This document shows positions 8,531 to 11,438 of a DNA stretch of 11,438 bases, piece after piece. The stretch is from the IMG/VR virus record IMGVR_UViG_2778261246_000003, one strand, 5' to 3'. Both the position numbers and the translations under genes were made by a program. The notes beneath the pieces are model-generated. The model saw only the letters and a program-made list of their open reading frames with translations, was not told where the DNA came from and searched no databases. This DNA comes from a virus (Duplodnaviria > Heunggongvirae > Uroviricota > Caudoviricetes). Position 1 is the first letter of the stretch; every line of letters starts with the position of its first letter.

Positions 8531-8553
8531 AGGCCGCCTGTGCGGCTTTTTTT
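8531..8553 (+). terminator. Hairpin plus T-run between D and E (terminator-like; probably read through in the antiterminated late transcript)
   Basis: GCCGC-CTGT-GCGGC stem-loop followed by TTTTTTT. It sits in the D-E intergenic region of the late operon. Confidence 0.35.
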
Positions 8554-8566
8554 ACGGGATTTTTTT

Positions 8567-8842
8567 ATGTCGATGTACACAACCGCCCAGCTGCTGGCGG
8601 CAAATGAGCAGAAATTTAAGTTTGATCCGCTGTTTCTGCGTCTCTTTTTCCGTGAGAGCTATCCCTTCACCACGGAGAAAGTCTATCTCTCACAAATTCC
8701 GGGACTGGTAAACATGGCGCTGTACGTTTCGCCGATTGTTTCCGGTGAGGTTATCCGCTCCCGTGGCGGCTCCACCTCTGAATTTACACCGGGATATGTC
8801 AAGCCGAAGCACTTAGCATGGCTTTCTGAGGCTTTCGTGTAG
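8567..8842 (+). pseudogene. E: Major capsid protein E, 5' fragment only (codons 1-82 of ~341), fused to 9 unrelated codons and a stop
   Basis: MSMYTTAQLLAANEQKFKFDPLFLRLFFRESYPFTTEKVYLSQIPGLVNMALYVSPIVSGEVIRSRGGSTSEFTPGYVKPKH matches the lambda gpE N-terminus. After codon 82 (CAC at 8810-8812) the sequence becomes LAWLSEAFV-stop instead of EVNPQMTLRR.... Confidence 0.85.
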
Positions 8843-8974
8843 TTGCTGGTTTTTACACTTAATCTTTTGATAATAAAGAATAAGTTTATCTGGCGCTTTC
8901 ACTGAATTTTCCTCGTTATCTGTGTGTTGCAATCATCTCTGTATTGCAGCTTGTATTGCTTTTTGGGGCTAAAA

Positions 8975-10210
8975 ATGGCTGGCGAGAACAAACTGAGCGA
9001 CAAAGCGCTTAAAGGATATCTGGGGAAACCCAGAGAAAAGCAGATCACCATTGCTGATGGAAAGGGGCTTTCTATTCGTGTGAGTACTAAAGGGGCTGTG
9101 AGCTTTGTTTTCTTCTACAGGTTAGCAGGTGGCCGGGCTGCTCCGGTCTGGCTAACGTTGGGTAAATATCCTGATATGTCACTCAAACAGGCAAGGGAAA
9201 AGCGCGACGAGTGCCGTGGTTGGTTGGCTGACAAACGTGATCCGCGTATCCAGATTAAGATTCAGGCTGAAGAACGCTTAAAGCCGGTCACAGTGGAGGA
9301 TGCACTAAATTACTGGTATGAAAATTACTGTAAGGTGCGTCGTAAAACTCATGCTGTAACGCTTGGCAGATTTCGAAAGCATATCTTTCCCTATATCGGT
9401 CATTTGCCCGTAAATGACACTCACCTATATGAATGGCTGGACTGTTTTGACCGAATTAAACGTAATGCACCAGTTATGGCGGCGTATGTTTTTTCTGACA
9501 CTAAATTAGCTCTTCGTTTTTGTCGGGTACGCCAGTACGCGACGTGTGATGCTTTAAAGGATTTGCGCATGAGTGATGTGGGGCAGATTGCAGGTAAGCG
9601 GGATCGGGTTCTGGATGAAGCCGAACTCGGCCAGCTCTGGAAGGCAATTTTTGTCGAGCCTGATTTAAAACTAATGTCTGAATACACGCGAAAAATGTTT
9701 GTGCTTTGTACAGTATTTGGATGTCGAATGAGTGAAGCCCGATTATCAGAATGGAGCGAATGGGATCTCGAAAGTTGGGTTTGGACTGTACCAAAAGATC
9801 ACTCAAAAACTGGTGTTGAAATCGTCAGACCAGTACCTGAAATTCTACGACAGTGGGTAACGGATGTTCACGAAGAGACAAAACATACTGGTTATGTGCT
9901 GGGAAGTCTGCGAATTAGAGAAAGCGTAAGCAAGATTGGGGGGAAAATCGGTAAACGTTTGGGCCATGAAAAACAATGGTCACTACACGACCTTAGAAGA
10001 ACGCTATCTACTCATCTAAGTGATCTCGGTGTTGAATTTTATGTAGTAGAACAACTGTTAGGCCATGCGCTACCTGGCGTGGCAGGTGTTTACAATCGGA
10101 GTAAGTTTATGGCTAAAAAACTGGATGCTCTGGAACTCTGGACTACATATCTCAATAGCATCGCAGGTGCTGATTCAAAAGTGACAATCCTCAAACAAAA
10201 GGCTGGTTAA
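8975..10210 (+). CDS. int: Tyrosine recombinase / phage integrase, P4 (CP4-57 IntA)-like with N-terminal arm-binding domain (411 aa)
   Basis: The N-terminus LSDKALKGYLGKPREKQITIADGKGLSIRVSTKGAVSFVFFYR fits the DUF4102-type arm-binding domain. The C-terminus has catalytic-box-like HDLRRT and GHALPGVAGVYNRS (candidate Tyr). I prefer the ATG at 8975 (GGGG 6 nt upstream) to the GTG at 8924 used by the track. Confidence 0.9.
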   Translation: MAGENKLSDKALKGYLGKPREKQITIADGKGLSIRVSTKGAVSFVFFYRLAGGRAAPVWLTLGKYPDMSLKQAREKRDECRGWLADKRDPRIQIKIQAEERLKPVTVEDALNYWYENYCKVRRKTHAVTLGRFRKHIFPYIGHLPVNDTHLYEWLDCFDRIKRNAPVMAAYVFSDTKLALRFCRVRQYATCDALKDLRMSDVGQIAGKRDRVLDEAELGQLWKAIFVEPDLKLMSEYTRKMFVLCTVFGCRMSEARLSEWSEWDLESWVWTVPKDHSKTGVEIVRPVPEILRQWVTDVHEETKHTGYVLGSLRIRESVSKIGGKIGKRLGHEKQWSLHDLRRTLSTHLSDLGVEFYVVEQLLGHALPGVAGVYNRSKFMAKKLDALELWTTYLNSIAGADSKVTILKQKAG

Positions 10211-10211
10211 C

Positions 10212-10439
10212 ATGAAAAAAATGGCAATTGTTGATAAAAAGGGTCTGGAGTACATTCCTAACATTGATCGTATGATCCGTGAGAAAGAATGTCGGGAGCT
10301 AACCACTCTTGCGAACAGCACACGCTGGAAGCTGGAGAAGGAAGGAAAATTTCCTAAGCGGATCAAGATTGGCGCTACTGCGGTAGCTTACCGTCTCTCC
10401 GAAGTTCAGGCATGGATTAAGGGAGAATGGAGTAATTAA
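10212..10439 (+). CDS. alpA: AlpA-family (Xis/Vis-like) small DNA-binding regulator (75 aa)
   Basis: ...ECRELTTLANSTRWKLEKEGKFPKRIKIGATAVAYRLSEVQAWIKGE matches the AlpA/MerR-like HTH signature (GKFPKxIKxG...VAxRxSEVxAWI). It starts 1 nt after the integrase stop. The start could instead be the ATG at 10221. Confidence 0.75.
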   Translation: MKKMAIVDKKGLEYIPNIDRMIREKECRELTTLANSTRWKLEKEGKFPKRIKIGATAVAYRLSEVQAWIKGEWSN

Positions 10440-10457
10440 ATAATAAGGTATTTCGAT

Positions 10458-11279
10458 ATGACAATGTGTGTTATTTGGAAGTCAGTTGATGGAACTATTT
10501 ATGCCGCCACAGATTCTCGACTGAGCTTTGAAGAAAAAAAGTTAGATCGTTGCGTTAAAATATCCCGAATCACATGTCTTTTACATGAGCCTAGTGATGC
10601 AGTAGATACAAGTAAGATACTTGTTGATAAGCGTGAGATTGCTACATTATTCTGTGGAGGCTTTACAAATGCCTATATCATCAAGGAGAGCCTTACTGAG
10701 ATTTTAAATAAAATAGTTCTCATGAGGGAATACTCCGGCGTGCCCTTTTCGGAAATTATAGATATAGCGTTTTCCATTTATGAAGATACATCAAGAGATA
10801 TGTTTGCATCATTAATGGACCAACGATTTGGATGTGTTTTTTACATGATAAGTTACTGCCCTGTATATAAGGAAATGCAAGCATTTAAATTTGAATTCAA
10901 AATAAATGAAAACGGTATTAACTATTATAAATCTAAACTTTTTGAAGATCGTAACTATGAGGTTAATGGAAGTGGGGTGAGGTACTTGGAACAAAATCAT
11001 CGTATTGAAGATCTAGTTAAAGAAGCTTATCAGAAGAATAAATACACACCACTTCTAGATATACTTGAGTCCGTAATTAATGATGACGACTGTGACTCTG
11101 TTGGAGGTGCAATGCAATACATTTCATGTAATAAAGATAGACTAAAATTGTGTTGTCATATGTTATTTGAAGAAAATAATCATAAGTATATGAAAGCTGG
11201 GGTGGACTTAAATGAACTCAATGAGAAGTTTATACCTTCTGGTTTGTTTTTTGAGACAGATGCAATCATCAAAAGATAA
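10458..11279 (+). CDS. Uncharacterised AT-rich protein (273 aa); no confident family assignment; possible N-terminal-nucleophile hydrolase-like N-terminus
   Basis: Long ORF in very AT-rich DNA with a start 18 nt after alpA. The N-terminus MTMCVIWKSVDGTIYAATDSR resembles the N-terminal strand of proteasome-beta/HslV-type Ntn hydrolases (T/C nucleophile - hydrophobic - DG - hydrophobic - A(A/G)xDSR). This is pattern-level only. Confidence 0.7.
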   Translation: MTMCVIWKSVDGTIYAATDSRLSFEEKKLDRCVKISRITCLLHEPSDAVDTSKILVDKREIATLFCGGFTNAYIIKESLTEILNKIVLMREYSGVPFSEIIDIAFSIYEDTSRDMFASLMDQRFGCVFYMISYCPVYKEMQAFKFEFKINENGINYYKSKLFEDRNYEVNGSGVRYLEQNHRIEDLVKEAYQKNKYTPLLDILESVINDDDCDSVGGAMQYISCNKDRLKLCCHMLFEENNHKYMKAGVDLNELNEKFIPSGLFFETDAIIKR

Positions 11280-11375
11280 ACGATAACCGACTTTGATTGT
11301 GATAATTTTATTGAGCTGGCCCCCTGAAATACCAGACAGTAGATGTATCTTAAAATAAGAGATAGGCTTGGATAT

Positions 11376-11438
11376 ATGTCTAACACTAGTTCTAATTTTG
11401 AGATGGCTGGCGTTTTGTTAGGAAAAGAGGTGCGTAAA
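11376..11438 (+). CDS. 5' end of a further ORF (MSNTSSNFEMAGVLLGKEVRK...), running off the window
   Basis: ATG at 11376 with an open frame to the window edge, about 95 nt downstream of the 273-aa gene on the same strand. Too short to classify. Confidence 0.3.
   Translation, partial: MSNTSSNFEMAGVLLGKEVRK

Follow-up and report, generated by a model that had tools for sequence, protein, structure and literature searches.

The beta subunits of the 20S proteasome (MEROPS T1A; PF00227) and HslV (ClpQ), a peptidase of 176 aa paired with an adjacent AAA+ unfoldase, HslU, are the described proteins closest to the one considered here, the 273-aa product of a satellite-borne gene designated ORF273. 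The gene for Anbu, a further bacterial homologue, has ATP-grasp, alpha-E and transglutaminase-like genes as its partners in a conserved operon. In a catalogue of the wider superfamily, Fuchs, Alva and Lupas (2021; PMC8665760) delineated 22 proteasome-homologue subfamilies in silico (PMI-1 to PMI-6, GPH, DPH, RPC, PPH, AAH and others), which are divergent and uncharacterized, keep Thr1, Asp17, Lys33 and Gly47, lack propeptides, and are often extended at the C-terminus and interrupted by insertions (H3-H4 in the PMI types). The same survey, which reports that S12/H5 elements are missing from the C-terminus in the BPH group, found no genomic context that hinted at a role for any of the new homologues (PMC8665760).

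The element that carries ORF273 also has a described counterpart, the helper-embedded PICI (HE-PICI) '11capE' (Mageeney et al., 2023; PMC10111431), which it matches in insertion site and in orientation. The two share the gene order int-alpA-(dynamic zone)-icd-DUF4222-primase-SSB-capsid E homologue-decoration-HTH-terS. Whereas Bro-network and immunity-RNA genes are described as prevailing in the zone after alpA of 11capE (Mageeney et al., 2023; PMC10111431), the elements sampled here hold exchangeable cargo in this position, including the putative protease described below as well as TIR and AbiC-like proteins.

The carrier satellite and the slot behind alpA

The window, that is, the whole stretch of 11,438 nt analysed, shows the 5′ fragment of the interrupted capsid gene together with int and alpA (Table 1), and the complete element is found in three related loci (L001, L003 and L049). 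In relatives, RefSeq labels the corresponding segment 'major capsid protein, incomplete, missing C-terminus', and the 3′ part of the capsid gene restarts about 11 kb later, beyond the satellite. Int, alpA and primase are co-oriented inside the prophage capsid gene, with both gene halves flanking them, and the carrier is a known type of helper-embedded PICI whose integration site is the lambda-like capsid gene E. The mechanically called open reading frame of the integrase starts further upstream, at a GTG at 8924.

Table 1. Features of the window and residues of ORF273 with their positions (5′ to 3′ on the strand given)
Feature	Position	Strand	Basis
Lambda-E-like major capsid gene of helper prophage, 5′ fragment cut by satellite integration (attL side)	8540..8842	+	RefSeq
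Satellite tyrosine integrase, 411 aa by relatives' annotation	8975..10210	+	PF13356 E 4e-19, PF00589 E 1e-16
alpA, 75 aa, end of conserved integration zone	10212..10439	+	PF05930 E 6e-15
Ribosome-binding site AAGG, ATG 9 nt downstream	10445..10448	+	direct sequence reading
ORF273, 273 aa; predicted proteasome-beta-like T1-type N-terminal-threonine hydrolase	10458..11279	+	ATG start
Thr2 codon ACA, predicted catalytic nucleophile (Thr1 after loss of initiator Met)	10461..10463	+	conservation and alignment
D19-S20-R21 (proteasome Asp17-x-Arg19)	10512..10520	+	D 142/145, S 138, R 134
Lys34 (Lys33)	10557..10559	+	invariant 145/145; aligned to Lys33
F-C-G-G; Gly67 corresponds to oxyanion-hole Gly47	10650..10661	+	G67 144/145
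G171-S172-G173 (Gly128-Ser129-Gly130)	10968..10976	+	G171 145/145; S172 106 (+11 T); G173 127
S214-V215-G216-G217, then Q220; family signature near proteasome D166/S169-G-G loop	11097..11108	+	conservation
IS3-family insertion sequence, left end (begins TGAGCTGG)	11312..11438	+	95% identity to annotated IS3-family transposase loci

ORF273 begins 18 nt 3′ of alpA, and no in-frame start was found further upstream. The initial annotation had placed a 273-aa reading frame directly behind int-alpA and judged it more AT-rich than its flanks; both statements hold, the Pfam matches of the two neighbours (PF05930, PF13356/PF00589) confirming their identity and the GC content of ORF273 being 33.6% (GC3 28.8%) against 45.0% in int, 44.3% in alpA and 57% in the lambdoid head genes. 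Homologues form 14 clusters in Enterobacterales and 295 clusters (at 50% identity) in the wider family, and dN/dS is 0.14-0.16 (about 0.15) against the Klebsiella and Pectobacterium orthologues; because of these two observations ORF273 is regarded as an intact, real gene under purifying selection. Between alpA and ORF273 there is no sigma-70-like site, and co-transcription with int-alpA is therefore likely. Around the gene no promoter or terminator signals rose above shuffled controls, an Rfam search gave no match nearby, and a repeat search returned nothing meaningful. The IS3-family element, whose transposase orfA has its ATG at 11377, is inserted 32 nt past the ORF273 stop codon; L001 and L049 depart from the window sequence at precisely 11312, and the element is separate from the gene and missing in relatives.

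Sister satellites with int-alpA 96.6-99.4% identical carry other genes in the slot, and homology to them breaks at the 3′ end of alpA (about 10418-10437). Their cargos are a PDC-S35 TIR protein, putAbiC and unknowns of 265, 305, 241 and 467 aa, and a second slot before attR holds PDC-S31/DUF2971 or AbiJ. This agrees with the earlier proposal that the gene occupies an accessory-payload position, and the comparison shows computationally that ORF273 is a swappable, AT-rich, single-gene cassette in the variable zone directly 3′ of alpA. Searches with hmmsearch ruled out the other slot cargos as distant relatives of ORF273. A multi-gene system continuing beyond the window had also been envisaged, but none was found. 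Two candidate partners were rejected: a SWIM zinc-finger gene located 3′ of the cassette in L001 recurs with the unrelated 265-aa cargo in L022, and a 179-aa ORF follows the gene in the 40%-identity clade (L007, L050, L052) and is missing elsewhere.

The position of the cassette raises the question of whether ORF273 serves the satellite itself, by processing a helper or satellite repressor, capsid or scaffold protein and so redirecting helper assembly or controlling induction, as a factor of the 'Bro/dynamic zone'. In P4 and PICIs the place directly 3′ of alpA is taken by regulatory genes of the Bro network (Mageeney et al., 2023; PMC10111431), and E. coli and K. aerogenes share int-alpA-ORF273 as one co-inherited block with 82% nucleotide identity. 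Such a life-cycle function is nevertheless quite improbable: homologues also reside on ICEs, on a plasmid and in chromosomes without a satellite, and just four of the 179 E. coli genomes that share the int-alpA carry ORF273, which argues that the satellite can dispense with it.

Predicted fold and active site of the ORF273 protein

ORF273 is annotated as "hypothetical protein" in every source, and PHROG 16034, which contains the same protein, has no assigned function. The failure of the initial annotation to place it in a recognized family was borne out, since Pfam (E≤1) and NCBIfam gave no match and phmmer/hmmsearch against PDB sequences gave no meaningful one; PADLOC (PADLOC-DB v2), one of the tools it had named, likewise has no model that matches the protein (no defence-protein HMM at E≤1). 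A match to CT795 (E 0.1) was dismissed as noise. Among the weak Pfam matches of the family PF00227 alone recurs, in 3 of 145 relatives (best E 0.0069), and ORF273 itself falls below the gathering score of that entry.

The relationship becomes apparent at the level of structure. A model built from a 145-sequence alignment has a pLDDT of 95.1 and a pTM of 0.91, and Foldseek returned 306 PDB matches at E≤1e-3, the best 50 listed being proteasome subunits throughout, with beta subunits ranked above alpha subunits. The modelled protein is an alpha-beta-beta-alpha Ntn sandwich of proteasome topology, and T1 is the Ntn family to which it comes nearest, so that the beta-subunit-like fold is shown computationally, as a predicted structure. 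Profile comparison points the same way: hhalign aligned the family with a T1 alignment at 78% probability (E 1.7e-5) with the catalytic motifs in register, and with E. coli HslV alone at E 0.002, placing MT on MT. Of the five reference sequences in the T1 alignment, that of HslV was taken from the MG1655 record, and among the other four PSMB5 alone was verified (identical to PDB 1iru_L). The 145-sequence profile also gave a sub-threshold proteasome match in the PDB (E 0.79), which was used solely for checking the alignment register. The resemblance to proteasome-beta/HslV-like Ntn hydrolases that had been read from the N-terminus (M-T-M-C-V-I-W-K-S-V-D-G-T-I-Y-A-A-T-D-S-R) and from a C-G-G-F-T stretch, both present as quoted, is therefore supported by the model, by Foldseek and by hhalign, and the model does adopt the Ntn-hydrolase-like fold on which that reading depended. 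ORF273 is very probably a stand-alone, divergent, proteasome-like (MEROPS T1-type) member of the Ntn-hydrolase superfamily.

The residues that serve catalysis in beta subunits have counterparts in ORF273 (Thr1, Asp17, Lys33, Gly47 and Gly128-Ser129-Gly130 equivalents; Table 1). ORF273 opens directly with M-T, a propeptide or N-terminal extension being absent, and Met occupies the residue-1 column in 141 of the 145 aligned sequences. In three alignments Thr2 falls on Thr1 of HslV and the beta subunits, and D19 and K34 are in register with the triad residues Asp17 and Lys33. D19-S20-R21 also aligns to 'SDSR' of beta1i (PDB 9frw) and to the T1 profile, and G171-S172-G173 to 'vGSGs' of that profile. 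F-C-G-G aligns to 'FAGG' of HslV and to the T1 'AG' motif, and belongs to the C-G-G-F-T stretch noted earlier as loosely recalling the Gly-rich segment of the fold, with Gly67 on the oxyanion-hole Gly47. The S-V-G-G signature (V215, G216 and Q220 each in 140/145; G217 in 144/145) lies near the position of Asp166/Ser169, the residues that maintain the active site in 20S beta subunits, in an hhalign register ambiguous by one residue, and the Asp column is variable (D in 19/145).

Two candidates for the nucleophile had been put forward, Thr2 and Cys4. Thr2 is conserved (137 T and 4 S among 145) and Cys4 is not (111 of 145), and the nucleophile is for this reason most likely Thr2, which, judging from the sequence, would become accessible once Met is cleaved off, as happens in HslV. 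Were M-T-M removed instead, Cys4 could act as the nucleophile of an amidohydrolase comparable to penicillin V acylase or C69-type enzymes, and Cys4 is invariant in the 15 close homologues; Cys-Ntn enzymes with short propeptides do exist. An invariant N-terminal Cys of the penicillin V acylase/C69/class II amidotransferase type is, however, absent from the family as a whole, and we regard this alternative as highly improbable. Scarcely to be expected, too, is an inert protein of proteasome fold that acts, like alpha subunits, as a scaffold or decoy: the equivalents of Thr1, Asp17, Lys33, Gly47 and the GSG motif are near-invariant, there is no extension before Thr, and beta subunits outrank alpha subunits among the structural matches.

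The family nevertheless differs from each described bacterial group. ORF273 is longer than HslV, and no hslU-like neighbour occurs at any of the about 27 family loci examined; the family retains the proteasome-like S-V-G-G loop, for which E. coli HslV offers no counterpart at that point of the alignment. None of the ATP-grasp, alpha-E or transglutaminase-like domains associated with Anbu appears among the listed Pfam matches of family neighbours. BPH chains are compact (185 residues), whereas the members of the ORF273 family have 255-300 aa, with insertions, and are distributed patchily on mobile elements. The family may be one of the 22 subfamilies of Fuchs et al. (2021; PMC8665760), as compared by description and accessions: a PMI-type architecture and the distribution over Proteobacteria, Bacteroidota, PVC and 'other' would fit, and the accessions do not coincide with the published representatives. 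Whether or not it belongs there, its satellite-hotspot and defence-island context is new information.

Neighbourhoods of relatives and possible roles

Relatives are rare, being present in 4 of 5426 E. coli genomes, 1 of 72,556 plasmids and 0 of 50,697 phage records. Further loci were located with a degenerate DNA pattern made by hand for the N-terminus, whose hits were true members in 15 of 15 cases in genome contigs and in one of two in viral contigs (L047 being a chance match). Relatives occupy the same slot in a K. aerogenes HE-PICI and in a capsid-forming PICI of K. variicola that lies within terL, and in a Serratia integrase island a relative occurs together with a 1474-aa NACHT protein. 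Further relatives are ICE cargo in Pectobacterium and Bacteroidota, and one lies on an IncF plasmid near repA and traI-traX. One relative adjoins MAD7 and a type IIG restriction-modification (RM) system, another Gabija and nSTAND3, and type I RM genes are beside or around the relative in 3 of 15 GTDB loci. At least five of the about 27 loci (P0174, P0190, P0193 and several GTDB loci) are ordinary chromosomal neighbourhoods, and at several of these GTDB loci the neighbours are sigma-54, alanine racemase or tRNA methyltransferase genes. ORF273 and its relatives share variable hotspots and defence islands with known defence genes, in a raw, uncontrolled tally.

Several relatives stand alone among metabolic and housekeeping genes, which would suit a general stress or quality-control peptidase that takes no part in conflict and merely hitchhikes on mobile DNA, comparable to the unexplained orphans Anbu and BPH; the context of every new homologue in the survey of Fuchs et al. 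(2021; PMC8665760) was equally uninformative. Against such a housekeeping function stand the extremely sparse distribution, patchy across phyla, the AT-rich composition, the exchange of the cassette slot with TIR and Abi genes and the recurrence beside RM, Gabija, NACHT and MAD7 loci, and we consider it rather unlikely. Unlikely as well is a role in anti-defence or establishment, in which the protease would degrade host immunity or other proteins and so help the carrier satellite, ICE or plasmid to establish or spread. Transferable elements of three kinds do carry the gene, namely PICIs, ICEs and a conjugative plasmid, and the Pectobacterium relative lies ~2.7 kb from an ArdC-N anti-restriction-type gene. 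Yet the sister cargos of the slot are of defence type (the TIR protein PDC-S35, AbiC-like), several relatives are found within chromosomal RM, Gabija or NACHT islands and not on incoming elements, and the vicinity of repA and traI-traX, where the IncF relative resides, is presumably not the leading region of F-like plasmids.

The reading that we prefer is that of a conflict protease. Methionine aminopeptidase would remove Met1, Thr being a permissive second residue as in HslV, and the alpha-amine and hydroxyl of the freed Thr would form the catalytic pair that makes ORF273 an active peptide-bond hydrolase. By analogy with other proteasome homologues the protein probably self-assembles, and entry to the active site would thereby be limited. 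Probably transcribed with int-alpA, it may act in phage or mobile-element conflict, most likely, we infer, in anti-phage protection of the satellite's host through proteolysis of a phage or host target. The chance of such a conflict or defence role is put somewhat short of even. The package as a whole, comprising a T1-type hydrolase, the cassette and the conflict role, is slightly favoured; counted against it are a Thr1 that would be exposed constitutively, with no unfoldase as its partner, the lack of clear conservation in the Asp166/Ser169 equivalents, the failure to pass PF00227 thresholds, the want of a PADLOC model, the rarity of the family and its ordinary chromosomal loci. More tentative is the broader proposal that a stand-alone threonine protease of the proteasome family constitutes a single-gene effector against phages or mobile elements, traded among satellites, ICEs, plasmids and defence islands. 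A search of the literature on proteasome homologues, HslV or Ntn hydrolases in anti-phage roles found nothing relevant.

Orphan bacterial proteasome homologues are many (Anbu, BPH and some 22 families known from sequence only), and for these proteins the ORF273 family offers a genomic context. As a small, genetically tractable E. coli gene carried as cargo in a satellite slot, ORF273 provides a testable clue to what such proteins do. If it is not protective, the family would still be an unannotated protease fold missed by Pfam, NCBIfam and PADLOC. If it is protective, the enzymes of bacterial immunity would include a new class, one that parallels the immune roles of the eukaryotic proteasome; with an immune effector of this kind, a proteasome homologue would for the first time be shown to take part in prokaryotic immunity, and an orphan bacterial proteasome-like family would gain its first physiological role.

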